In this document: piece by piece, positions 9,794-23,323 of the stretch
How positions within the stretch are numbered: the stretch's first letter is position 1
Layout: each line of letters opens with the position of its first letter
Source: an uncultured Clostridia bacterium
GTDB lineage: Bacteria > Bacillota > Clostridia > Christensenellales > CAG-917
Assembly (NCBI GenBank): GCA_934254835.1
Contig: CAKQMI010000003.1
Span: forward strand, 14,240 to 78,239
Length of the DNA: 64,000 nt
Direction of reading: 5' to 3'
Program-made: the position numbers and the translations under genes
The notes under the pieces: model-generated
What the model was told of the DNA's origin: nothing
What the model saw: the letters and a program-made list of their open reading frames with translations, nothing else
Databases searched by the model: none

Positions 9794-10804
9794 CTAAAAC
9801 TCGCGCAATTTTTCTTGCCAGCCTTTCGGGATATAGATATCCGAAAAGACTTTTACGGCGTATCGGTCGCTCATTGCGGCGATATAATCGCACACGACGG
9901 TCTCCGCGCCGTAGTCGGACAACATATCTTTGTAAAGAACGGGAAGTTCCGCCGTGTTGCCCATAAAATATCCGAAAAGACTTTCGATAAGCCTCTTGGC
10001 TTTCACCTCTTCGTACTTTGCCTCCGACTGCGTATAAAGGTTTTTGAACATATACGAGCGCAGTTCGTCCAGCGCGCCCTCGAACTCGTCGGAAAGCGAA
10101 ATTTGCGGTTTGCTTATGCTGTTTTCGACAAGGTCGTACACAAGGTTGTTTATCCTGTCGCGGTGGGTGCGCCCCAAGACGTCGACGCACGACTTCGGCA
10201 GACTGTCCTCGGCAATAAGCCCCGCGCGTATTCCGTCGTCGATGTCGTGATTGACGTAGGCGATGCGGTCGGCGTATCCCACGACTTTCCCTTCCAAAGT
10301 TTTCGGATTGCCGTCGATGCGGTGTTCCCTTATGCCGTCCAGCACTTCCGCCGTGAGATTGAGTTTTTCCAGCACCTCGCACACGCGCACGCTCTGTTCG
10401 TTGTGCGAAAATTTGCCGTTGGTAAGCGCGCTTAAAGTGCGCTCGCCGGCGTGACCGAACGGGGTGTGTCCCAAGTCGTGTCCCATTGCGATTGCCTCGA
10501 TAAGGTCCTCGTTCAGGCGTACCGCGCGCCCGACAGTCCTTGCGATTTGCGACACTTCCAAAGTGTGCGTCAGACGGGTGCGGTAATGATCGCCCTCGGG
10601 CGACAAGAATACCTGCGTCTTGTGCTTCAATCGTCTGAACGCTTTGCTGTGGATAATCCTGTCGCGGTCGCGCTGAAACTCGGTGCGGATTTTGCACTCT
10701 TCAATCGGCGTTTCCCGCCCCGCGGTGTCGCGACTTTTGAAGGCATAGGGACTCAGATACTTGTCCTCGATTTCGTAGGTTACGTCTTTAATATCGTTGC
10801 TCAT
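9794..10804 (-). CDS. dGTP triphosphohydrolase-like HD-domain protein
   Basis: 336 aa. RDRDRIIHSKAFRRL, RLTHTLEVSQIAR and GHDLGHTPFGHAGE are typical of the Dgt family. Confidence 0.9.
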   Translation of the reverse strand: MSNDIKDVTYEIEDKYLSPYAFKSRDTAGRETPIEECKIRTEFQRDRDRIIHSKAFRRLKHKTQVFLSPEGDHYRTRLTHTLEVSQIARTVGRAVRLNEDLIEAIAMGHDLGHTPFGHAGERTLSALTNGKFSHNEQSVRVCEVLEKLNLTAEVLDGIREHRIDGNPKTLEGKVVGYADRIAYVNHDIDDGIRAGLIAEDSLPKSCVDVLGRTHRDRINNLVYDLVENSISKPQISLSDEFEGALDELRSYMFKNLYTQSEAKYEEVKAKRLIESLFGYFMGNTAELPVLYKDMLSDYGAETVVCDYIAAMSDRYAVKVFSDIYIPKGWQEKLREF

Positions 10805-11004
10805 TTCCTTTTTTTCGGTTGAACTTTGTGTTTTTCGCCGTTTTCGTCAACAATATACGTATTGTCGAGTTGCGCCTTTAAGGACGCCTTGACGCTGTCG
10901 ATATATTCACGGCGTATCGTGGCTTGTTCGGCCTTTTCCTCGTCGGTCAACCCTTCGATTTTGGATTTTTTTGCAAGATAATTCAGCCTTTCGATATCAA
11001 TCAT
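10801..11004 (-). CDS. DUF896 (UPF0291, YnzC-like) small protein
   Basis: 67 aa. MIDIERLNYLAKKSKIEGLTDEEKAEQATIRREYIDSVK matches the family pattern. 4-nt overlaps with both neighbouring genes. Confidence 0.75.
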   Translation of the reverse strand: MIDIERLNYLAKKSKIEGLTDEEKAEQATIRREYIDSVKASLKAQLDNTYIVDENGEKHKVQPKKRK

Positions 11005-11591
11005 TTGTTGTACCTTTCGATAATTTCTTCGTTTTGTTTCAAAAGTTTTGCTTTTTCACAAACGCTGTCGGCGGATTCCACCAAACGCAAGAATTCTTCG
11101 TCGTACTTTTCTTTGTCCGCCTTCGACTTGTCCAAAGCGAGTATCCGCGCATTGACGTCGGACAATCCCTCATACAATTCGTAATAACCCTTGATTTGCT
11201 TTTCGGTGAAGGTCGTCAACGCATGGTCGGCAACCGCCGTTATCTTCAATGAAAACTTCAAAATTTCTCTTTTTGCTTTTTCCTTGTCGCGGGTGTCGTA
11301 CAAAGTGTGGATATGCTTTGCAATGTACTGCGTCTCCTCAACGAGGCTGTTTACGTAGCCCTGCTTTTTCCTTTTGTTGACGGCTTTGATAAGCGGAATT
11401 CCCACGATAAGCGACAGCCCGAACGCGCAATAGGTTGCGATAAGTTTTATTAAGTCGTCGTTGGAAAACTCGACGTCGGGCTCGGCATTAGTGCCGTCAC
11501 CGCTTGTCGAAGCGTACGCAATCGACGTAGTCGAAAACGCAATAAGCAAGGTTAACAGTAAAAATATGACAAATAAACTATGTTTTTTCAT
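11001..11591 (-). CDS. hypothetical secreted/membrane-anchored protein
   Basis: Start moved to MKKHSLFVIFLLLTLLIAFSTTSIAYAS (signal peptide). The ATGA overlap with the mscS stop at 11588-11591 supports this start. A second hydrophobic helix and a helical C-terminus follow. No family recognised. Confidence 0.55.
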   Translation of the reverse strand: MKKHSLFVIFLLLTLLIAFSTTSIAYASTSGDGTNAEPDVEFSNDDLIKLIATYCAFGLSLIVGIPLIKAVNKRKKQGYVNSLVEETQYIAKHIHTLYDTRDKEKAKREILKFSLKITAVADHALTTFTEKQIKGYYELYEGLSDVNARILALDKSKADKEKYDEEFLRLVESADSVCEKAKLLKQNEEIIERYNK

Positions 11592-12403
11592 TGTTCGTTG
11601 CCTCCGACGACTTTTACGGCAAGTTTGTTTGTCGTGACTGATATGCCGTTTTCGTTCAAAGTCTTGACAATTTCTTCGTTCAAAATAAACAAAGCGTCCC
11701 AGTAAAACTCGGTGGGCACCCAGCAACGAAGCGTCACTACAATTGCGCTGTCGGTATAGGACGACAAGACGACGCTCGGCGCGGGCGAAGACAAGACTTC
11801 GCTTTTGTCGTTTGCGATTTTCAGCATTATTTTTCTTATCTTTTCCACGTCCTCGTCATAGGAAAACCTCAGACTGCACACAACCCTTCTTGTGGGATTT
11901 GTGCTGTAATTCACGACACCGCTTCCGATAAGAGATGAGTTGGGAAGCGTAATCATTTGGTTGTCGTACGTCACGAGCTTGGTGTTGAAAAACCCGATTG
12001 CCATAACCGTGCCCTCGACGCCGTTCACCGCAACGTAGTCGCCCACGACGAAAGGCTTGCTTCCGAGGATTATAAATCCGTTGGCAAGGTTGCTGAGACT
12101 GTCCTTCAACGCCAGGGATATCGCAAGTCCTGCCGCCGAAATGAGCGCAACGAAACTTGCCGTCGAAATCCCCGCCGACTTTCCCGTCATCAGGAACAGC
12201 CCGAAATAAAGCAGAACGCCCACAACCGACAAAACAAAACTGGAAATCGTCCTGTCCAGATGCGCGCGCACCGAAAGTTTGTTGGCGATAAGCATCAAAA
12301 GTTTGACCGCCAGCAAGCCGAAAATAAACACGGCAATCGTCCGCGCAATCGTCAGACCGTTGCCGGTGATAAACTCAAATAAGATTTTTTCAAATTCAGC
12401 CAT
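11588..12403 (-). CDS. small-conductance mechanosensitive channel (MscS family)
   Basis: 271 aa. Three N-terminal TM helices, then the MscS beta-domain KPFVVGDYVAVNGVEGTVMAIGFFNTKLVTYDNQMITLPNS. Confidence 0.88.
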   Translation of the reverse strand: MAEFEKILFEFITGNGLTIARTIAVFIFGLLAVKLLMLIANKLSVRAHLDRTISSFVLSVVGVLLYFGLFLMTGKSAGISTASFVALISAAGLAISLALKDSLSNLANGFIILGSKPFVVGDYVAVNGVEGTVMAIGFFNTKLVTYDNQMITLPNSSLIGSGVVNYSTNPTRRVVCSLRFSYDEDVEKIRKIMLKIANDKSEVLSSPAPSVVLSSYTDSAIVVTLRCWVPTEFYWDALFILNEEIVKTLNENGISVTTNKLAVKVVGGNEQ

Positions 12404-12409
12404 AGTACC

Positions 12410-13357
12410 CTACTGTTTCCACATCTTTTGGAAAATCCTGAAAAGGAGTTTGTCCGCTCTTTTTTGCGAGACGTCGCTTTGTCCCGTGACCGCCGAGTGT
12501 ATCGACCTTTCGGCAAGCGTCGGCACAAGCGCGGTGAGAACGTTGAATTCGATATCCTTTTCCATTGACGCCATCGTGAAATATGCGTCGCCGTCAAAGT
12601 TGGTGTGCGACGGCGAAATTGCCCGTGCAAGACCGTCGTGAGCGAGGTCCGCCAAGCGGTTTGCCTGCACTTTTGTGATTTTCGCATTCGTCAGGACGCA
12701 ACCTATCGTTGTGTTTGCGCCGTATTGCCCGACTGCGCCCGACGTGAAAACTTTCAGACTGTCCAAAAAACTTCCGTCGGGGGACTTTATCCCCGCAATG
12801 ATTTTGCCGTTGTCCACGACGTCGCCCAAAGCGTTCACGACGGAAATAACCGCCACTTCGATGCCGTTCAATGACACGCTCGCAACGCCGAGCCCCGCCT
12901 TTGCCAAACTTTCCATACCCAAAAGTTTGCCGACGGTTGCGCCTGTCCCCGCGCCGATATTACCGGACGAAAAGTCGCCCGCTTTGGCGTTCTTTGCAGA
13001 GAGGTAGCCTGCGTTTTTGTCGGGAAACGCAAAGTTTTTGTATTCCAAATCGAAAATCGACGCACCGACGACGATGGGCACAACTTGCTTTCCGACCTTA
13101 AATCCACAGCCGTTTTCGGCAAGGTATTGCATGACGCCACACGACGCTTCGAGTCCGTACGCACTCCCGCCCGACAAAACGCACGCGTTGACTTTCTCCA
13201 CCGTCTTTTCGGGGGAAAGCAAGTCGGTTTCGCGGGTTGCGGGGGACGCTCCGCGGACGCTTACTCCGCCCACTGCGCCGTCTTCACAAATGATTGCGGT
13301 GACGCCCGTCCCGTTTTCTTCGTCGGTAAAATGTCCGATTTTGAATTTTTCCAGCAT
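12410..13357 (-). CDS. P1/S58 family peptidase (DmpA-type L-aminopeptidase/D-esterase)
   Basis: 315 aa. N-terminus KIGHFTDEENGTGVTAIICEDGAVGGVSVRGASPATRETDLL and the internal NTTIGCVLTNA self-processing-type motif. Confidence 0.85.
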   Translation of the reverse strand: MLEKFKIGHFTDEENGTGVTAIICEDGAVGGVSVRGASPATRETDLLSPEKTVEKVNACVLSGGSAYGLEASCGVMQYLAENGCGFKVGKQVVPIVVGASIFDLEYKNFAFPDKNAGYLSAKNAKAGDFSSGNIGAGTGATVGKLLGMESLAKAGLGVASVSLNGIEVAVISVVNALGDVVDNGKIIAGIKSPDGSFLDSLKVFTSGAVGQYGANTTIGCVLTNAKITKVQANRLADLAHDGLARAISPSHTNFDGDAYFTMASMEKDIEFNVLTALVPTLAERSIHSAVTGQSDVSQKRADKLLFRIFQKMWKQ

Positions 13358-13365
13358 AGTATTCC

Positions 13366-16182: not shown

Positions 16183-16258
16183 GGACGTTTAACTCAGCTG
16201 GTAGAGTGTCTTCTTGACGTGGAGAAAGTCAGCGGTTCGAGTCCGTTAACGTCCACCA
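16183..16258 (+). tRNA. tRNA-Val (anticodon GAC), CCA encoded
   Basis: The hand-folded cloverleaf has acceptor GGACGTT/AACGTCC, D arm ACTC-AGCTGGTA-GAGT, anticodon arm TCTTC-TTGACGT-GGAGA, T arm AGCGG-TTCGAGT-CCGTT, discriminator A and CCA. Total 76 nt. Confidence 0.93.
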
Positions 16259-16292
16259 AAATAACGCAATCAAACGGTTGCGTTATTTTTTT
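16259..16292 (+). terminator. rho-independent terminator after tRNA-Val
   Basis: ATAACGCAA-tcaaacgg-TTGCGTTAT followed by TTTTTT. Confidence 0.7.
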
Positions 16293-16296
16293 GTAC

Positions 16297-16306
16297 GCTA
16301 ACGTCC
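16297..16306 (+). repeat. partial copy of the tRNA-Val 3' acceptor (GCTAACGTCC)
   Basis: 9/10 match to GTTAACGTCC of the tRNA, direct orientation. Short, so weak on its own. Confidence 0.3.
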
Positions 16307-16384
16307 TCTGCGCAAATACATTTGCGCGGGCTACGCCACGTCACACACTTCGCTTTAAAAATCGCATTATTTCTTTTAATAATG

Positions 16385-16440
16385 CTCACTCTTGCGCTCG
16401 TGTGCTCCTCTTCCCCAAAAGTACAAAAGTATCTTTTGGG
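16385..16440 (-). repeat. inverted partial copy of the 105-bp unit head
   Basis: The reverse complement CCCAAAAGATACTTTTGTACTTTTGGGGAAGAGGAGCACACGAGCGCAAGAGTGAG aligns with 17013-17068 (CCCAAAAGATACTTTTGTACTTTTGGGGAAAAGGAGTATGCGAGCGTAAGACAATC). Confidence 0.6.
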
Positions 16441-16456
16441 AGCCCCATTATTACGC

Positions 16457-16629
16457 GCTGACCGCAAGCAAAGAGAGGAGCAAGCGCTTGCATTTGCGAA
16501 AATCGAGCGTAGCGGACATAGACAACGATTGCACGAATTTTTCGTGCAAAATGCAAGGCATTGTTGCTTTCAACAAATCGTTGTCATAGACGCTTCACTA
16601 TGCAAGTAAACTTGCTCGTTCCGCTATTA
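16457..16629 (+). ncRNA. candidate structured RNA/DNA core, copy 1 (second copy 50845-51017 minus)
   Basis: About 173 nt align with the reverse complement of 50845-51017. There is a three-hairpin junction (16523-16583) and a further hairpin (16602-16615), and the stems are kept by compensatory changes between the copies. No ORF. Confidence 0.45.
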
Positions 16630-16631
16630 AA

Positions 16632-16641
16632 CGAGTCCGTT
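16632..16641 (+). repeat. partial copy of the tRNA-Val T-arm/acceptor (CGAGTCCGTT)
   Basis: 10/10 identity to tRNA positions 16237-16246, directly after the 173-nt core. Confidence 0.4.
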
Positions 16642-16775
16642 CCAAGGGGCAGAGAACACCGAAATCTTGATTTCGGTGTTCGGCGGTTGCTTGCAAACGC
16701 TTACGTTGTGTAGCGTGTATGAAATGGTAGATAGTTTGTAGCATTTCGAAAAGCATAAATGGTACGCCCAACGCA

Positions 16776-16809
16776 GAGTAGCCCCGTTAACGTCACGCCC
16801 GTTAACGTC
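16776..16809 (+). repeat. two adjacent partial copies of the tRNA-Val 3' end
   Basis: GAGTAGCCCCGTTAACGTC and CCCGTTAACGTC compared with tRNA GAGTCCGTTAACGTCC. Confidence 0.5.
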
Positions 16810-16883
16810 GCTTTTTGTCCTCGGCAATTCTCTTTACAGCAACGAATTACTCTCTTATGTCATTGCGAGGAGGATATCGGTGT

Positions 16884-17003
16884 CTCCAAAAGATACTGAC
16901 TAATGGGCCCCGCGGGATACTGTGTACCCGTGGGGAAAAGGAGTATGCGAGCGTAAGACAACCGACTGTCGCTTGCGACAATCGGTTGGTCAAAAACGAA
17001 GCA
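16884..17003 (+). repeat. tandem repeat unit a (period about 105 bp)
   Basis: CTCCAAAAGATACT ... GGGGAAAAGGAGTATGCGAGCGTAAGACAACCGACTGTCGCTTGCGACAATCGGTTGGTCAAAAACGAAGCA. Confidence 0.7.
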
Positions 17004-17011
17004 ATCGGGGC

Positions 17012-17108
17012 CCCCAAAAGATACTTTTGTACTTTTGGGGAAAAGGAGTATGCGAGCGTAAGACAATCGACTGTCGCTTGCGACACTCGATTGGTCAAAA
17101 ACGAAGCA
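17012..17108 (+). repeat. tandem repeat unit b
   Basis: CCCCAAAAGATACT ... GGGGAAAAGGAGTATGCGAGCGTAAGACAATCGACTGTCGCTTGCGACACTCGATTGGTCAAAAACGAAGCA. The 72-nt body is near-identical to unit a. Confidence 0.7.
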
Positions 17109-17405: not shown

Positions 17406-17819
17406 TCACAAAAAACGGCGCAATTCTTTGACATTGGCGTCATAAAGTTTGATGAGTTCGCCGGCAAACGGGGTATCCTCGTGACTATAAAGGTGCGACG
17501 TTTTGACAACGTCGTTAATGCCCATATTGTTGCCCTCGATAAGCATTTCGGCGATGTTGGTCGTGGACTTGTCAAGCCCCGATTTCATCTTTACGCCCAT
17601 TTTCATCATTGCCCTTTCCATCTTGTTGGGGTACGTTCCTTCGACCGCTGACGGCGTATCTCCAAGCTCTTTCGAAGCCCTTTCGGACAAATCCAAAATC
17701 TTTGTTTTTTGTTTCCACAAAGTTTCGCGCAGTTTAGTATCTTTGACGTTTTCCCAAATGTTATCGATGGCGTCCACGCCGACGTTGCAGTTTTTGATGA
17801 CTTCTTTCAATAAATTCAT
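17406..17819 (-). CDS. hypothetical helical protein (possible four-helix-bundle/ferritin-like fold)
   Basis: Start placed at MNLLKEVIKNCNVGVDAIDNI, with GGAGG 5 nt upstream. The N-terminal 31 aa of the track ORF overlap pntB. No family recognised with confidence. Confidence 0.5.
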   Translation of the reverse strand: MNLLKEVIKNCNVGVDAIDNIWENVKDTKLRETLWKQKTKILDLSERASKELGDTPSAVEGTYPNKMERAMMKMGVKMKSGLDKSTTNIAEMLIEGNNMGINDVVKTSHLYSHEDTPFAGELIKLYDANVKELRRFL

Positions 17820-17904
17820 ATTTGCCTCCATATCGGAGTTTGTGCAAAGCGCAAAAAAATATGCCACCGCATTACACGGTGGCAAATTTTCATTGTTTTT
17901 TGAT

Positions 17905-20900
17905 TTACGCATTCATATCGGAAATGAACTTTTGGAGCGTTTCCTGAGCGTTGCCAAGGTACAGATACACGCCGTTTTCGCGAGTGTACAAGGGGTTGTC
18001 AACGCCTGCGTAGCCGGGTTTCAAGTCGTAGTTGAAGATGAAGATATTCTTGCAATCCGCGACGTCCAAAACGGGCATTCCATAAATAGGCGTGCCTTCC
18101 GCGGTGTTTGCGGCGGGGTTCAGAACGTCGTTTGCGCCGATGACGATCGACGCGTCAGCCGTCTTGAACTCGGGGTTGATATCGTCCATTTCGTACAAAT
18201 CTTCGTAGTCAACGTCGGCTTCACACAGCAATACGTTCATGTGCCCGGGCATACGTCCCGCAACGGGGTGAATTGCGTATTTGACCTTGGTGCCGTTTGC
18301 GACGAGTTTGTCGGCGAGTTGCTTTACAAGGTGTTGAGCCTGCGCGATTGCCATACCGTAACCGGGGACGATAATCACGTTTTTGGCGTCCAGCAGAAGT
18401 TTGGCGGGGTTTTCGACCTTTTTGGGTGCGTCTTCCGTCTTTTCCGCAGTTGCCTCGACGGCAGGTTCAGCCGTATCGGCTTTTTCAAGCGCGACTTCGG
18501 CGGGTTTATCCATATCGGCGATGAATTTTTGCAAGGTGTCTTGAGCGTTGCCGAGATACAGATGGACGCCGTTTTCACGCGTATAGATGGGGTTGTCAAC
18601 GCCCGCGTAGCCGGGTTTCAAGTCGTAGTTGAAGATGAAGATATTCTTGCAATCTGCAACGTCCAAAACGGGCATTCCGTAGATAGGCGTACCTTCCGCG
18701 GTGTTTGCGGCGGGGTTCAGAACATCGTTTGCGCCGATGACGATTGTGGCGTCTGCCGTCTTAAACTCGGGGTTGATATTGTCCATTTCGTACAAATCTT
18801 CGTAGTCAACGTCGGCTTCGCACAACAATACGTTCATGTGTCCGGGCATACGTCCCGCAACGGGGTGAATTGCGTATTTGACTTTCGTTCCGCCTGCGGT
18901 AAGTTTGTCGGCAAGTTGCTTTACAAGGTGTTGCGCCTGCGCGATTGCCATGCCGTAGCCGGGGACGATGATGACTTCTTTCGCACCGTTGAGGCTTGAC
19001 GCGTAGTTGGTCTCAGTTTTCACTTCGACGGGTTTGACTTCGGCGGTTTCAGCCTTGACTTCGGTGGTCGTTTCGACGGGTTTATCCATATCGGCGATGA
19101 ATTTTTGCAAAGTTTCTTGAGCGTTGCCGAGATACAGATGTACGCCCTCTTCACGGGTGTAAATGGGGTTGTTGACGCCGGCGTAACCGGGCTTCAAGTC
19201 GTAGTTGAAGATGAAGATATTCTTGCAATCCGCGACGTCCAAAACGGGCATTCCGTAGATAGGCGTGCCTTCCGCGGTGTTTGCGGCGGGGTTCAGAACG
19301 TCGTTTGCGCCGATGACGATTGTGGCGTCAGCCGTCTTGAATTCGGGGTTAATGTTGTCCATTTCAAACAAATCCTCGTATTCGACGTTGGCTTCGCACA
19401 GCAATACGTTCATGTGTCCGGGCATACGTCCCGCGACGGGGTGGATTGCATATTTGACCTTGGTGCCGTTTGCGACGAGTTTGTCGGCAAGTTGCTTTAC
19501 AAGGTGTTGAGCCTGCGCGATTGCCATGCCGTAGCCGGGGACGATGATGACTTCTTTTGCACCGTTGAGGGTTGCGGCGTAGTTAATTTCGGTTTTCACG
19601 ACGGGTTTTTCGGCTTTGACTTCTTCTTTTGCGACAGCGGGTTTATCCGCTCTGACTTCCGCAGGAGCGGGAGCGGGGGCGGGTTTCGAGTCGCCGGACG
19701 TACCGCCAAGAAGGATTGCGCCGAGTTTTCTGTTCATTGCTTTGCACATAATTTGCGTCAAAAGGAGTCCCGACGCGCCGACGATACCACCGACGGCAAC
19801 CAGCAATAAGTCGTTGATTGCAAGACCGGCGATTGCGCCCGCGACGCCCGAAAGGCTGTTGAGCAAAGAAATGGTGATGGGCATATCCGCGCCACCGACA
19901 CGAATTGCGAAGATAAATCCGAAGAAGCCCGAGATAACAAGCAACAACGCAATCATGATACCGCAAAACGCTTTGATATCCATGCCGAGCACGATTTTGC
20001 CACTGCCCGCAAGAGCCGCAACCGTCGCGAACACGACGATAAGCGCGAGCGTCAACATAAGACTGCCGACGGTCATAGCCTGATGTCCCTTATAGACAAC
20101 GGGTTTTTGCGGGAGAATTTTGTGAAGTTTGCCTGCCGCGACAAGGCTTCCGATGAGGGTGATCATACCGACTGCAAGCGCAAGAGACGACGTCGTCGTG
20201 GAGAATCCGTCAAAGCCCGTGCCTACGCCGAGCATAGCGAACGCGCCGACGATTGCCGATGCCGCACCGCCCAAACCGTTGAGCAACGCAACCATCTGAG
20301 GCATTTGAATCATCTTGACTTTCTTTGCAAGGACGATACCCGCAACCGTGCCGAGTGCGAGACCGATATAGAGCGTCCAGACAGTCGCGATGTGATTTGT
20401 GCCGTTGCCGTAAACGATAATGAGGATTATTGCAAGGAGCATGCAAATCGCGCTGAAACGGTTGCCGATTTTGCTGTAAACGACCTTGCCCATCATAGCG
20501 ATGCCCAAAAGCACGCCAAGCGACAGTACGATTGCCATTGCAAGGTAGATCCAGTCACGAACAGAAGCGCCCGAGCCTGCGCCCGCCGATTTTGCGATGA
20601 CGTCCATACAGCAAATAACCGCAAGAAGCCCCGCGCCGACGATTGCCGATGCGACGTAAATTGCGGTTTGTCCCTTTGCTTTTTTCTTTGCGATCATGCC
20701 GAGCATACGGTCGGTGACCATAAATCCGCCGACGACGTTGACCATTGCAAGAGCGATTGCAAGCGAACCGAAGATCGCCGAAAGCACGACGCCCGCCGTC
20801 CCGAGATTGAACAGCGATGCGCTTGCCGACAATGCGCCAAGCACCGTCACGCCCGACAATGCGTTCATACCCGACATAAGCGGAGTATGCAAAAGCGTGG

Positions 20901-21045
20901 GAACGTTGGAAATAAGTTTGTAACCGACGAGCGTCGCAACAACGAATACGCCAAGAAGAATCAATTGGAAATAAATTGCCTTCTCAAGACCGAAGTTGCC
21001 CATTGCAAGAGCGCCCGTCATAACAGAGTTTAACGTTGATAACAT
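17905..21045 (-). CDS. pntB: NAD(P) transhydrogenase, fused alpha-2 (PntAB) + beta (PntB) subunit with three tandem dIII domains
   Basis: 1046 aa. The N-terminal about 125 aa are alpha-2-like TM helices (...GGFMVTDRMLGM). Next comes PntB dII (GGADMPITISLLNSLSG, IMCKAMNR). Then dIII occurs three times, each with VIIVPGYGMAIAQAQH, HPVAGRMPGHMNVLLCEA and GANDVLNPAA. Confidence 0.93.
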   Translation of the reverse strand: MLSTLNSVMTGALAMGNFGLEKAIYFQLILLGVFVVATLVGYKLISNVPTLLHTPLMSGMNALSGVTVLGALSASASLFNLGTAGVVLSAIFGSLAIALAMVNVVGGFMVTDRMLGMIAKKKAKGQTAIYVASAIVGAGLLAVICCMDVIAKSAGAGSGASVRDWIYLAMAIVLSLGVLLGIAMMGKVVYSKIGNRFSAICMLLAIILIIVYGNGTNHIATVWTLYIGLALGTVAGIVLAKKVKMIQMPQMVALLNGLGGAASAIVGAFAMLGVGTGFDGFSTTTSSLALAVGMITLIGSLVAAGKLHKILPQKPVVYKGHQAMTVGSLMLTLALIVVFATVAALAGSGKIVLGMDIKAFCGIMIALLLVISGFFGFIFAIRVGGADMPITISLLNSLSGVAGAIAGLAINDLLLVAVGGIVGASGLLLTQIMCKAMNRKLGAILLGGTSGDSKPAPAPAPAEVRADKPAVAKEEVKAEKPVVKTEINYAATLNGAKEVIIVPGYGMAIAQAQHLVKQLADKLVANGTKVKYAIHPVAGRMPGHMNVLLCEANVEYEDLFEMDNINPEFKTADATIVIGANDVLNPAANTAEGTPIYGMPVLDVADCKNIFIFNYDLKPGYAGVNNPIYTREEGVHLYLGNAQETLQKFIADMDKPVETTTEVKAETAEVKPVEVKTETNYASSLNGAKEVIIVPGYGMAIAQAQHLVKQLADKLTAGGTKVKYAIHPVAGRMPGHMNVLLCEADVDYEDLYEMDNINPEFKTADATIVIGANDVLNPAANTAEGTPIYGMPVLDVADCKNIFIFNYDLKPGYAGVDNPIYTRENGVHLYLGNAQDTLQKFIADMDKPAEVALEKADTAEPAVEATAEKTEDAPKKVENPAKLLLDAKNVIIVPGYGMAIAQAQHLVKQLADKLVANGTKVKYAIHPVAGRMPGHMNVLLCEADVDYEDLYEMDDINPEFKTADASIVIGANDVLNPAANTAEGTPIYGMPVLDVADCKNIFIFNYDLKPGYAGVDNPLYTRENGVYLYLGNAQETLQKFISDMNA
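17908..18405 (-). repeat. dIII-coding repeat 3 (aa 881-1046)
   Basis: AKLLLDAKNVIIVPGYG...QKFISDMNA. Confidence 0.9.
18511..19002 (-). repeat. dIII-coding repeat 2 (aa 682-845)
   Basis: ASSLNGAKEVIIVPGYG...QKFIADM. Followed by the 35-aa linker DKPAEVALEKADTAEPAVEATAEKTEDAPKKVENP. Confidence 0.9.
19087..19578 (-). repeat. dIII-coding repeat 1 (aa 490-653)
   Basis: AATLNGAKEVIIVPGYG...QKFIADM. Followed by the 28-aa linker DKPVETTTEVKAETAEVKPVEVKTETNY. Confidence 0.9.
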
Positions 21046-21071
21046 ATTAAAGACCTGCCTTAATCATTATT

Positions 21072-21103
21072 AAAAATACCCCCTGCCCGCAAGCAGGCAG
21101 GGG
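21072..21103 (-). terminator. terminator-like GC hairpin + U-run inside the pnt operon, about 25 nt upstream of the pntB ATG
   Basis: Minus strand reads CCCCTGCC-tgcttgcg-GGCAGGGG followed by GTATTTTTAATAATG. Confidence 0.5.
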
Positions 21104-21407
21104 ATTGCCTTTTATTGATAAAATTTTACGAAAAATGGTTTTTCGTCACCGTTTAGCCATTGAACTATGTATGTTCTCGGCAAAACGGCAAGATTTGGAT
21201 GAGATTTTGACGTTTCTTGTGGCGTTCTGAAAATCCTCAATAACAGATTTCAGCATCGCGTTAATGTCAAAATTTACATTCATTAAGCGACGAGATTTAG
21301 ATGAAGTTCTGACGTTTCTTTTAATGTTCCGAGTTTTCCAGTGTACTACCACGTACACGAAAACTCGGGTTCTTAAAAAAACTCAGAAATTCGCTAAATG
21401 TCGGCGA

Positions 21408-22574
21408 TTAAAGTCCCATCGCCTCGCGAGCGCCCTTATGCACAATCTCTCCATCAAGGGTGACAAGGATGCTTTGAACGATTTCGTCATTCATATCGAG
21501 TTTCACACTGCCGTCTTTTGCGAGGAAGGCGAGCAGGTTGTAAATGTTGTATGCGAAGAGCCAAGTCGAGCTTGTGGGAAGTTGACCGGGGATATTCTTG
21601 ATACCTTCGATGATGACGCCGTGTTTGATGTCGCGAATGCCGGGGCTGGTGATAGCGCAGTTTCCGCCTTGGTCGATGGAGATATCGATAATTGCGGAGC
21701 CGGGCTTCATGGAAGCGACCATTTCATCGGTGAGGAGCGTGGGAGCGAGTTGTCCTTGGAGGAGCGCGGAGCAGAAGATGATGTCGGCGTTTTTGACGGC
21801 GTCGGCAAGAGCTTCGCGTTCTTTTTCAAGCCATTCTTCGGGGAGGCGTTTTGCATATTCTACGACGCCTACGCGACGGACAGCGATTTCCTCGGGAACG
21901 CCGGTCGGAACGATTTTCGCGCCGAGAGACATTGCCTGTTCGTTTGCGGAAGGACGGATATCTGCAGAGTAAACTTTTGCGCCCAAGCCTTTTGCGGTTG
22001 CGACTGCACGAAGACCTGCAACACCGGTACCGATGACGAGAACGTTGGCGGGTTGGATAACGCCGACTGCCGAACCGATCAAGGGCATAAATTTGGAAAT
22101 ATCGTTTGCGCCCATGAGCATGCCTTTGTAGCCTGCGCAGGTGCTCATCGAGGACAAAGCATCCATGGATTGTGCGCGAGAAATACGGGGTACACCGTCA
22201 AGGGTAAGACCGATTACGCCTGCCGCCGCCATATCTTTGACCATTTGGTGGTTGACGGGAGATGCGGGGTGAATGAACGTAATGAGGTATTGACCTTTGT
22301 GCATCATTGCGATTTCGTGTTTGCCTTTTTCTTCGTTGAAGAGAGGCTCTTTAACTTTCAAAATAACGTCGGATTTTGCAAAAATTTCTTCGCAATCTTC
22401 CAAAATGGTTGCGCCCGCGGCAAGATAATCTTTGTCGTGATAGTGCGAGCCTTCGCCTGCTCCTTTTTCGAAAAGAACGGTCATACCGGAGTCGACCATC
22501 TTTTTAACGGTGTCGGGAATTGCTGCAACACGAGCTTCGTCGTGCATAATTTCCTTGGGGATACCAACTATCAT
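21408..22574 (-). CDS. pntA: NAD(P) transhydrogenase subunit alpha part 1 (dI, alanine-dehydrogenase-like)
   Basis: 388 aa. MIVGIPKEIMHDEARVAAIPDTVKKMV, Rossmann motif VLVIGTGVAGLRAVATAKGLGA. Confidence 0.93.
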   Translation of the reverse strand: MIVGIPKEIMHDEARVAAIPDTVKKMVDSGMTVLFEKGAGEGSHYHDKDYLAAGATILEDCEEIFAKSDVILKVKEPLFNEEKGKHEIAMMHKGQYLITFIHPASPVNHQMVKDMAAAGVIGLTLDGVPRISRAQSMDALSSMSTCAGYKGMLMGANDISKFMPLIGSAVGVIQPANVLVIGTGVAGLRAVATAKGLGAKVYSADIRPSANEQAMSLGAKIVPTGVPEEIAVRRVGVVEYAKRLPEEWLEKEREALADAVKNADIIFCSALLQGQLAPTLLTDEMVASMKPGSAIIDISIDQGGNCAITSPGIRDIKHGVIIEGIKNIPGQLPTSSTWLFAYNIYNLLAFLAKDGSVKLDMNDEIVQSILVTLDGEIVHKGAREAMGL

Positions 22575-22637: not shown

Positions 22638-23099
22638 TTACTTTTCTTTTTTCGCCTTGACGGGGATGTTGTAGTCGTTTTTCGGACTGCTGAGCACAAT
22701 GCTGGTTTGCGTCTTTGAAACGCCCGGAATGCTCTTTATCTCGTTCAGGACGTTTTCGAGAGTCCTCGTGTTGTCGGTGACGACCTTCAAGAAGTAGTCG
22801 AACTCGCCTGCGATATACAAACATTCGGCAATGTGGTGATTGCTCTTGACCGCAGTCACGAAGCCGTCGTTGAACTTCGGGTGGTCGATTGCGACGCTTA
22901 TCAGCGCGGTGACGTCTTTTCCGAGTTTTTCGGGGACGATAATCGCGGTGTAACCCTTGATAACCCCTGCGCTTTCAAGCTTTTTTATGCGTTCGATAAC
23001 AGTGGACGTGGACAATTTCACCTTCTCGGCGATTTCGGACGAATTCGCTCTGGCGTTTTTCATAAGACACTGCAAAATTTTTACGTCTGTATTATCCAC
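22638..23099 (-). CDS. Lrp/AsnC family transcriptional regulator
   Basis: Start placed at GTG 23099 (M)DNTDVKILQCLMKNARANSSEIAEKVKLSTSTVIERIKKLESAGVIKGY, behind an AAGGAG RBS. A C-terminal RAM/AsnC_trans_reg-type domain follows. Confidence 0.88.
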   Translation of the reverse strand: MDNTDVKILQCLMKNARANSSEIAEKVKLSTSTVIERIKKLESAGVIKGYTAIIVPEKLGKDVTALISVAIDHPKFNDGFVTAVKSNHHIAECLYIAGEFDYFLKVVTDNTRTLENVLNEIKSIPGVSKTQTSIVLSSPKNDYNIPVKAKKEK

Positions 23100-23323
23100 A
23101 AAACACTCCTTTCCTCTCACCATTTGATTTTAACATACGTTAAATGCGGTGTAAACGATATTATTCATTTTTTTCCGAATTTTTTACGGAAAAGCGTTCT
23201 TGTAACAAAATTTTTTTCGGAAATGGGCAAAGATAACAAAAAATTTCAATATCGGTCAAAATTTTACAATTGTAAAAAACGACGCCGAGATTTTTCACTC
23301 GACGTCGCCTGACTTTCGGTTCG

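Follow-up and report, generated by a model that had tools for sequence, protein, structure and literature searches.

We found that a window of 64,000 nucleotides (nt) from an uncultured Clostridia bacterium (contig CAKQMI010000003.1, positions 14,240 to 78,239; all positions below are those of this stretch) encodes an NAD(P) transhydrogenase, PntAB, that departs from two features treated as universal in this enzyme, the single dIII domain per beta chain and the KRS motif of dIII. The gene pntB (17905..21045 on the reverse strand, as are all genes, domains and single residues located below) runs from an ATG start through 1046 amino acids (aa) plus a stop, and its product joins an alpha2 segment and the membrane domain dII to three dIII domains in tandem, as judged by Pfam, NCBIfam and a hidden Markov model (HMM) of the dIII unit. 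Together with pntAA, which encodes dI separately, it is by its domain content a proton-translocating NAD(P) transhydrogenase (EC 7.1.1.1) of the three-polypeptide type, kept by selection. The multi-dIII layout is apparently undescribed, though widespread in anaerobes (a status taken throughout from taxon names or record titles); its novelty is lack of description, not rarity.

The alpha2 segment, with four transmembrane helices (aa 31-119; 20689..20955), was recognized by the Pfam family PF12769 (PNTB_4TM) over the same residues, and aligns with the alpha2 subunit of Thermus thermophilus and the C-terminus of the Escherichia coli alpha subunit. Alignment with E. coli (9L76_C) and the ovine mitochondrial nicotinamide nucleotide transhydrogenase (NNT) delimits dII at aa 160-446 (19708..20568), which shares the motifs GGADMP, LNS.SG and MCKAMNR with dII of E. 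coli, T. thermophilus and sheep and is predicted by AlphaFold to be helical throughout. The remainder is occupied by dIII unit 1 (aa 490-653; 19087..19578), unit 2 (aa 682-845; 18511..19002) and unit 3 (aa 881-1046; 17908..18405). PF02233 (PNTB) matched the product in three stretches, the best spanning aa 170-650 (E 1.6e-289, profile positions 4-454), and the NCBIfam model PRK09444 (PntB) likewise gave three; the HMM built from dIII units matched at aa 490-653, 682-845 and 881-1044. Each unit matches solved dIII structures (E 6e-53 for unit 1 against Rhodospirillum rubrum dIII), and the motifs GYG, GANDxxNPAA, YGMP and GYAGVxNP are present in all three. The preliminary description of this locus, made by eye from the sequence, had proposed just such an alpha2-PntB fusion and expected a domain search to return three dIII stretches; both the Pfam/NCBIfam and the unit-HMM searches bear this out, and the nt coordinates it gave translate exactly to the three units. 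Besides pntB, no further dIII-bearing open reading frame (ORF) was found in the 64-kb window.

Every dIII unit of pntB is under purifying selection. A repeat search groups the units as a single three-copy family with periods of 597 and 576 nt and 87-92% identity over 300 nt; Tandem Repeats Finder did not detect this repeat, because its period of 576-597 nt is above the program's 500-nt limit. Compared pairwise, the units are 90-94% identical as proteins (154/164, 149/166 and 151/166 positions), in agreement with the 10-15 differences per 164 positions counted earlier by eye, and 91%, 88% and 87% identical as DNA. Nei-Gojobori estimates between the paralogous units gave dS of 0.37-0.51 and dN of 0.035-0.062, hence dN/dS of 0.09-0.13, meaning that the copies are maintained by selection. 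Within loops D and E the units differ at just two loop-E positions (N/D and I/L), and the other differences fall at the N-terminal junction, in one surface loop, in one helix and in the C-terminal part. Against the locus of a 92%-identical ortholog, P0002, dN/dS was 0.013 for alpha2, 0.067 for dII and 0.028 for dIII unit 1. That locus (L081) is syntenic with the window, both having a gene for a PI-PLC (phosphatidylinositol-specific phospholipase C), an AsnC-type regulator, pntAA, a spacer and pntB.

The same divergence bears on whether an assembler could have multiplied a single dIII by stuttering. Between units 45-62 of 492 nt have changed, for the most part synonymously, and the linkers between them are unlike in length and sequence. 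P0002, at 1044 aa, also has three units and is the head of a 1498-sequence cluster formed at 90% identity; 14 of the 15 members listed are 1044 aa long, on contigs of up to 1 Mb, and one member, P0271 (1229 aa), has four units. In Alkalicella caledoniensis a four-unit protein (WP_213166588.1) lies on a 3.7-Mb contig. The repeat is evidently hard to assemble, to judge from the short-read contigs that end within the array (L004, L022, L023, L030, L037, L042, L043 and L046), and this is what an artefact would have in its favour. Given the unit divergence and the independent assemblies we rejected it as extremely improbable; to the preliminary description, too, the units had looked like maintained copies.

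Many short-read contigs of metagenome-assembled genomes (MAGs) terminate inside the dIII array. Since the contigs break there, and since the genes are annotated only as 'subunit beta', dIII copy number is probably under-reported in public assemblies.

The units hang on three linkers rich in Ala, Pro, Glu, Lys, Val and Thr: L0 between dII and unit 1 (aa 447-489, 43 aa; 19579..19707; GGTSGDSKPAPAPAPAEVRADKPAVAKEEVKAEKPVVKTEINY), L1 between units 1 and 2 (aa 654-681, 28 aa; 19003..19086; DKPVETTTEVKAETAEVKPVEVKTETNY) and L2 between units 2 and 3 (aa 846-880, 35 aa; 18406..18510; DKPAEVALEKADTAEPAVEATAEKTEDAPKKVENP). In a full-length AlphaFold model the predicted local distance difference test (pLDDT) score dropped below 50 exactly at aa 447-485, 660-677 and 852-877, with three Rossmann-type units between. 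This model (mean pLDDT 66.7, predicted template modelling score, pTM, 0.50, from a 17-sequence alignment) served to place order/disorder boundaries, not docking. The linkers are thus predicted to be disordered, which fits the flexible linkers of the preliminary description, whose lengths of 28 and 35 aa also proved correct. Across 312 proteins the linkers have a trimmed median of 18 aa (range 11-45) and are rich in A, E, P, K, T, D and S (A 21%, E 12%, P 10%, K 9%, T 9%).

The second departure lies in loop E of dIII, the lid of the nucleotide site. In dIII crystal structures its KRS motif binds the 2'-phosphate of NADP(H). In E. coli the motif (beta K424-R425-S426) forms part of the NADP(H) site (PMC9529548). 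In a gap-free alignment with the KRS of R. rubrum and E. coli and the KRG of T. thermophilus, the corresponding triplet is N-Y-D in all three window units (nt 19198-19206, 18622-18630 and 18025-18033 for units 1 to 3), whereas the solved structures all carry K-R-S/G; both loop-E differences between the units lie outside the triplet. The earlier statement that each unit keeps the complete dIII signature therefore stands for GYG, GANDxxNP, YGMP and GYAGVxNP and fails for KRS, and the label 'NADP(H)-binding' becomes, for such units, something deduced and not a given.

The substitution is not confined to the window. Among 586 distinct dIII units, 475 have N-x-D (x being Y, F or L, rarely R), 103 have K-R-x and 8 something else, and the split between N-x-D and K-R coincides with the deepest split of a dII tree. 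Nearly all multi-dIII proteins are N-x-D, as are many single-dIII relatives, mostly from anaerobes. Other positions go with the triplet: a Lys or Arg four residues after the Asn (77% of the N-x-D clade vs 18% of the K-R clade), the Tyr of NPxY (98% vs 19%), and the residue preceding PIYGMP, which is Thr in 95% of the former and Ser in 89% of the latter. N-x-D marks a distinct PntAB clade, mostly of anaerobes, with a separate soluble dI. The remainder of the dIII nucleotide site is unchanged in this clade, and we infer that NADP(H) is still the ligand, bound under a rebuilt lid. A dIII turned NAD(H)-specific was set aside as the primary reading: dI keeps the Asp typical of NAD(H) sites, so a dIII that also bound NAD(H) would make the reaction pointless.

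Multiple dIII domains are likewise common among relatives. In the best 120 protein matches, a ranking that favours multi-copy forms since their scores add up, 88 had four dIII units, 19 three, 8 two and 5 five. Those with four include proteins of the named species A. caledoniensis, Porphyromonas uenonis, P. bennonis and Desulfovibrio intestinalis, all annotated 'subunit beta'. Of the 80 best loci, taken from one genome per species, about 36 encode two to four units, in taxa that include Clostridia, Christensenella, Porphyromonas, Prevotella, Bacteroides, Desulfovibrio, Riflebacteria, Anaerolineaceae, Limnochordia and Haloplasmataceae; multi-dIII forms turn up in at least five phyla. Labels of individual MAGs may be wrong, the nearest species-level genome (76% identity) being labelled Bacteroidaceae while its neighbours are Clostridia. 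Distant matches (Bremerella, Sphingobacterium, Halieaceae, Deinococcales and others) have one dIII. Among unbiased 50%-identity representatives, about 20 of 2374 proteins (E up to 1e-10) have at least two dIII stretches, around 1% of clusters. The preliminary description had called the layout unusual and asked whether it is clade-wide: the three units are real, but they are not peculiar to this locus, since two to five units per chain are common in one large clade, mostly of anaerobes and including cultured species, whose full range runs from one to five.

Copy number varies even between close relatives. At about 90% identity or above it is polymorphic, with two, three and four units in the group of the window protein and three and four in that of D. 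intestinalis (polymorphic relatives P0271, P0007, P0053 and P0285-P0288). On a neighbour-joining tree of dII, copy numbers 1-5 are scattered through one clade with single-copy members interspersed, which implies many independent gains and losses. In most proteins examined, units within one protein are more alike (~79-100%) than they are to units of diverged orthologs (~70-88%), and unit-by-unit orthology is seen between near relatives. Between the window and L081, pN was lowest for orthologous unit pairs (0.029 each), while pS was lower between same-genome paralogs (0.29-0.36) than between orthologous units (0.43-0.58); for this one genome pair, gene conversion together with selection on a few residues specific to each unit would be expected to leave such a pattern. 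On the sequences compared, copy number appears to change often, through unequal recombination and gene conversion. The units, described beforehand as diverged, maintained paralogous copies, are indeed maintained (dN/dS ~0.1) and yet not simply old paralogs, for their evolution is concerted and units are often gained and lost.

Such dynamics raise the question of whether the extra units do anything at all, or are simply tolerated, their number rising and falling by unequal recombination without functional benefit. Copy numbers of two, three and four among sequences at least 90% identical, the homogenization of units within a protein and the interspersed single-copy members would all fit near-neutral change. 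We nonetheless hold it to be improbable. Modules of 190 aa that served no purpose should decay or disappear, whereas dN/dS is ~0.1 between units at a dS of 0.4-0.5. Fifty Porphyromonas-type proteins have stable arrays of four equally conserved units (92-93%) with clear positional orthology, and the recurrence in at least five phyla also speaks against it.

A few lineages do have a degenerate second dIII (P0139 and P0138), which may be a pseudo-domain with a regulatory role. Unit 5 of P0019 is also degenerate, and the motifs lost in such lineages include GYAGV. Among KRS-type proteins with two dIII units, P0136 and P0140 were discarded as probable artefacts, either fragments or chimeras, and in P0138 the second unit is diverged. 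These degenerate units resemble what would be expected if distal dIII domains acted as tight NADP(H) reservoirs or as redox sensors, modulating the proximal unit or buffering the pool, and isolated canonical dIII does bind NADP(H) very tightly and release it slowly. However, neither the window protein nor most of its relatives have a degenerate unit, the few nucleotides bound per enzyme would be negligible beside cellular pools, and the N-x-D lid, if anything, argues against unusually tight binding. A buffering or sensing role thus seems to us a poor prospect.

What several intact dIII units might do depends on the partners of dIII. In current models a single dIII swivels: hydride is transferred on dI, and on dII the nucleotide site is opened or closed with proton passage. 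How hydride transfer between dI and dIII drives or follows the passage of protons through dII, at a distance of some 30-40 Å, is debated; the accounts assume one dIII per protomer, with the protomers of the dimer working in antiphase. The mobile dIII, placed between dI and dII, communicates with the two in alternation (PMC5742237). When isolated, dI and dIII form a 2:1 dI2:dIII complex (Kd <60 nM), and a second face-up dIII clashes sterically (PMC5742237).

In the window, dI is a separate soluble NAD(H)-binding subunit of 388 aa encoded by pntAA (21408..22574), with matches to PF05222 (AlaDh_PNT_N, E 7e-43), PF01262 (AlaDh_PNT_C, E 2e-55) and, over residues 1-368, NCBIfam PRK09424; it keeps the Asp that ends Rossmann strand beta2 (KVYSADIRP). 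Wherever one of the first 50 related loci reaches far enough upstream, alpha2/pntB is preceded by a separate dI gene without a membrane anchor. Being separate and unanchored, dI could be in excess of beta, and a terminator-like hairpin ~35 nt before the pntB start (21078..21105, reverse strand; 12 bp, 8 of them GC, followed by a T-run) is compatible with this; its stem is kept in L081.

The reading that we find best supported, and to which we give an even chance, is that the dIII units would be several swinging arms shuttling between soluble dI dimers and one dII channel. The tethered units would be equivalent and take turns at the single dII: while one is docked there exchanging NADP(H), the others, each on its own soluble dI dimer, would be transferring hydride. 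In this way the membrane channel would not stand idle, and each membrane-embedded dII would support a higher turnover. The number of units would then determine the capacity of the enzyme, and could be altered quickly. The logic would be that of the tandem lipoyl domains of 2-oxoacid dehydrogenase E2 or the tandem acyl carrier proteins (ACPs) of polyunsaturated fatty acid (PUFA) synthases. Support for the swinging arms comes from selection on every unit, the kept motifs (513 of 539 units of multi-dIII proteins retain all five patterns tested), the predicted disorder of the linkers, the separate dI and the recurrence of the layout in many lineages.

Several points weigh on the other side. The swinging-arm model is built by deduction and analogy. 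If the step coupled to dII were rate-limiting, additional dIII units would bring no gain, and coupling would be lost whenever an extra dI-dIII complex let its nucleotide go without a visit to dII. With the N-x-D lid, the tightness of NADP(H) binding, and even the binding itself, is in doubt. Many members of the same clade have one dIII, so the extra units are not essential, and the intercistronic hairpin is no general feature, since pntAA and pntB are separated by almost no gap in several multi-dIII loci. With its low global confidence (pTM 0.50), the AlphaFold model is uninformative on docking.

The separate dI also allows the extra dIII units to be seen mainly as a scaffold that captures soluble dI dimers at the membrane by avidity, with only the proximal dIII cycling on dII. 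Throughout this clade dI is a soluble protein of its own, every multi-dIII form seen in a complete protein comes from a lineage with separate dI, and the binding of dIII to the dI dimer is tight (Kd <60 nM; PMC5742237). But the distal units keep all motifs as well as loops D and E and are equally conserved, which binding alone would not need, and R. rubrum and Thermus, whose dI is soluble too, manage with one dIII. We regard such a scaffold as unlikely.

The closest known systems are the three-polypeptide enzymes of T. thermophilus and R. rubrum (PntAA, PntAB and PntB; PDB 4O9U, 1PNO and others), which, like that of the window, comprise a soluble dI, an alpha2 and a beta subunit of dII plus dIII. 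The likeness to T. thermophilus may extend to the proton channel. The dII position of E. coli beta-His91 is Asn256 in the window protein (nt 20278-20280), and the histidine of the alpha2 HTPLMS motif is present (His53, nt 20887-20889) as the candidate channel residue, an arrangement like that of T. thermophilus, where the channel histidine is on alpha2 (His42) (PMC5742237). Unlike these enzymes, the window has three dIII domains per beta chain instead of one and an alpha2 fused to beta; its dII-dIII linker is 43 aa long against the published 14-19 aa (PMC5742237), and its loop E reads N-Y-D against K-R-S in R. rubrum and K-R-G in Thermus. E. coli PntAB and mitochondrial NNT share the three domain types and the dIII motifs GYG, GANDxxNP, YGMP and GYAGVxNP, but differ in having dI fused to the membrane part, one dIII and an intact KRS (and, in E. 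coli, beta-His91), and they form a deep branch of the dII tree separate from the window clade.

The two carrier-domain systems are functional analogies only. E2 chains have one to three lipoyl domains on 20-40-aa linkers, which visit several active sites and vary in number between species. They resemble the window protein in having repeated small mobile domains on flexible linkers of Ala, Pro and charged residues, but there is no homology, and lipoyl is covalently attached whereas NADP(H) is dissociable and would be exchanged at dII. Tandem ACPs of PUFA synthases and some polyketide synthases are near-identical carriers on Ala/Pro-rich linkers that evolve in concert; output scales with carrier number in such arrays, which again lack homology to dIII and use a covalent phosphopantetheine arm. 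Pfam found no lipoyl or ACP domain in the window protein.

The preliminary description was right that characterized transhydrogenases have one dIII per beta chain: this holds for all that have been solved or characterized, with dI, dII and dIII at 1:1:1 in the protomer, and according to a review from 2017 the architecture of three domains is 'universally conserved' (PMC5742237). We found no description of multi-dIII enzymes or of the N-x-D lid in the searchable full-text literature, which misses most subscription journals, so that absence there is not proof. A paper on apicomplexan isoforms concerns alpha-beta order and gene duplication, not dIII repeats.

Upstream of pntAA lies a gene for an Lrp/AsnC-family transcription regulator (22638..23123; Pfam HTH_24 and AsnC_trans_reg, and HTH_AsnC-type). 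Relatives have a constant gene context, a separate dI gene followed by alpha2 (separate or fused) and pntB, often with an Lrp/AsnC regulator in front; at least 17 of 50 related loci, and L081 as well, have a homolog of the regulator at this place, and this conservation suggests amino-acid-responsive control of the operon. The spacer between pntAA and pntB (21046..21407, reverse strand), unusually long at 362 nt, is strongly structured (RNA fold -114 kcal/mol, z = -6.9) and contains two ~48-nt direct repeats (21183-21230 and 21285-21332), whose pattern occurs nowhere else in the window. The spacer is conserved in L081, where a further ~100-nt module is present, and an Rfam scan of the spacer and upstream region gave no match. 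The spacer may be an attenuator or a device setting the dI:beta expression ratio. A general intercistronic terminator in multi-dIII loci was considered and rejected, many loci having almost no gap.

On the 3' side, a second terminator-like hairpin directly follows the pntB stop (17862..17884, reverse strand). It lies within the 5' end of a listed ORF (17406-17912, reverse strand, 168 aa) that has a weak DUF2383 match, so the start of this gene is probably a Met further in (MEANMNLL, ~nt 17831); in L081 the gene called at this place is 137 aa long. Further 3' of the operon is a region of non-coding repeats (16239-17108), with 81-nt direct repeats (16923-17003 and 17028-17108, 93%), a 57-nt inverted repeat (16390-16446 and 17007-17063, 89%) and a 31-nt hairpin (16239-16308). 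In L081 a defence-island-like block of DndB, a D12-methyltransferase and DUF7226 (9807-13364) stands between pntB and a C_GCAxxG gene; at that position the window has no listed ORFs of comparable size.

The rebuilt lid and the repeated dIII may also be linked. A possible reading, which we hold with considerable reserve, is that the change of K-R-S to N-x-D, with the Lys/Arg at +4 and the Tyr of NPxY, and the presence of two to five dIII units together define a distinct class of transhydrogenase in anaerobes with an altered operating mode. If so, weaker or different nucleotide binding might go with shuttling by several arms; the coupling ratio or direction might be another, such as NADPH-driven proton export, which would be energy-conserving in fermenters; and a nucleotide specificity other than canonical NADP(H) would be possible. 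Such a class would amount to a natural test of the dIII-swivel mechanism.

Enzymes with two to five equivalent, selected dIII domains per dII cannot work exactly as the antiphase single-dIII model has it. They offer an experimental handle on whether each unit visits dII, how rate depends on copy number and whether the proton-per-hydride ratio is kept, and, being compact, might find use in NADPH regeneration in engineered strains. The N-x-D clade to which nearly all of them belong is large, taking in Porphyromonas, Prevotella, Bacteroides, Desulfovibrio and many gut Clostridia.

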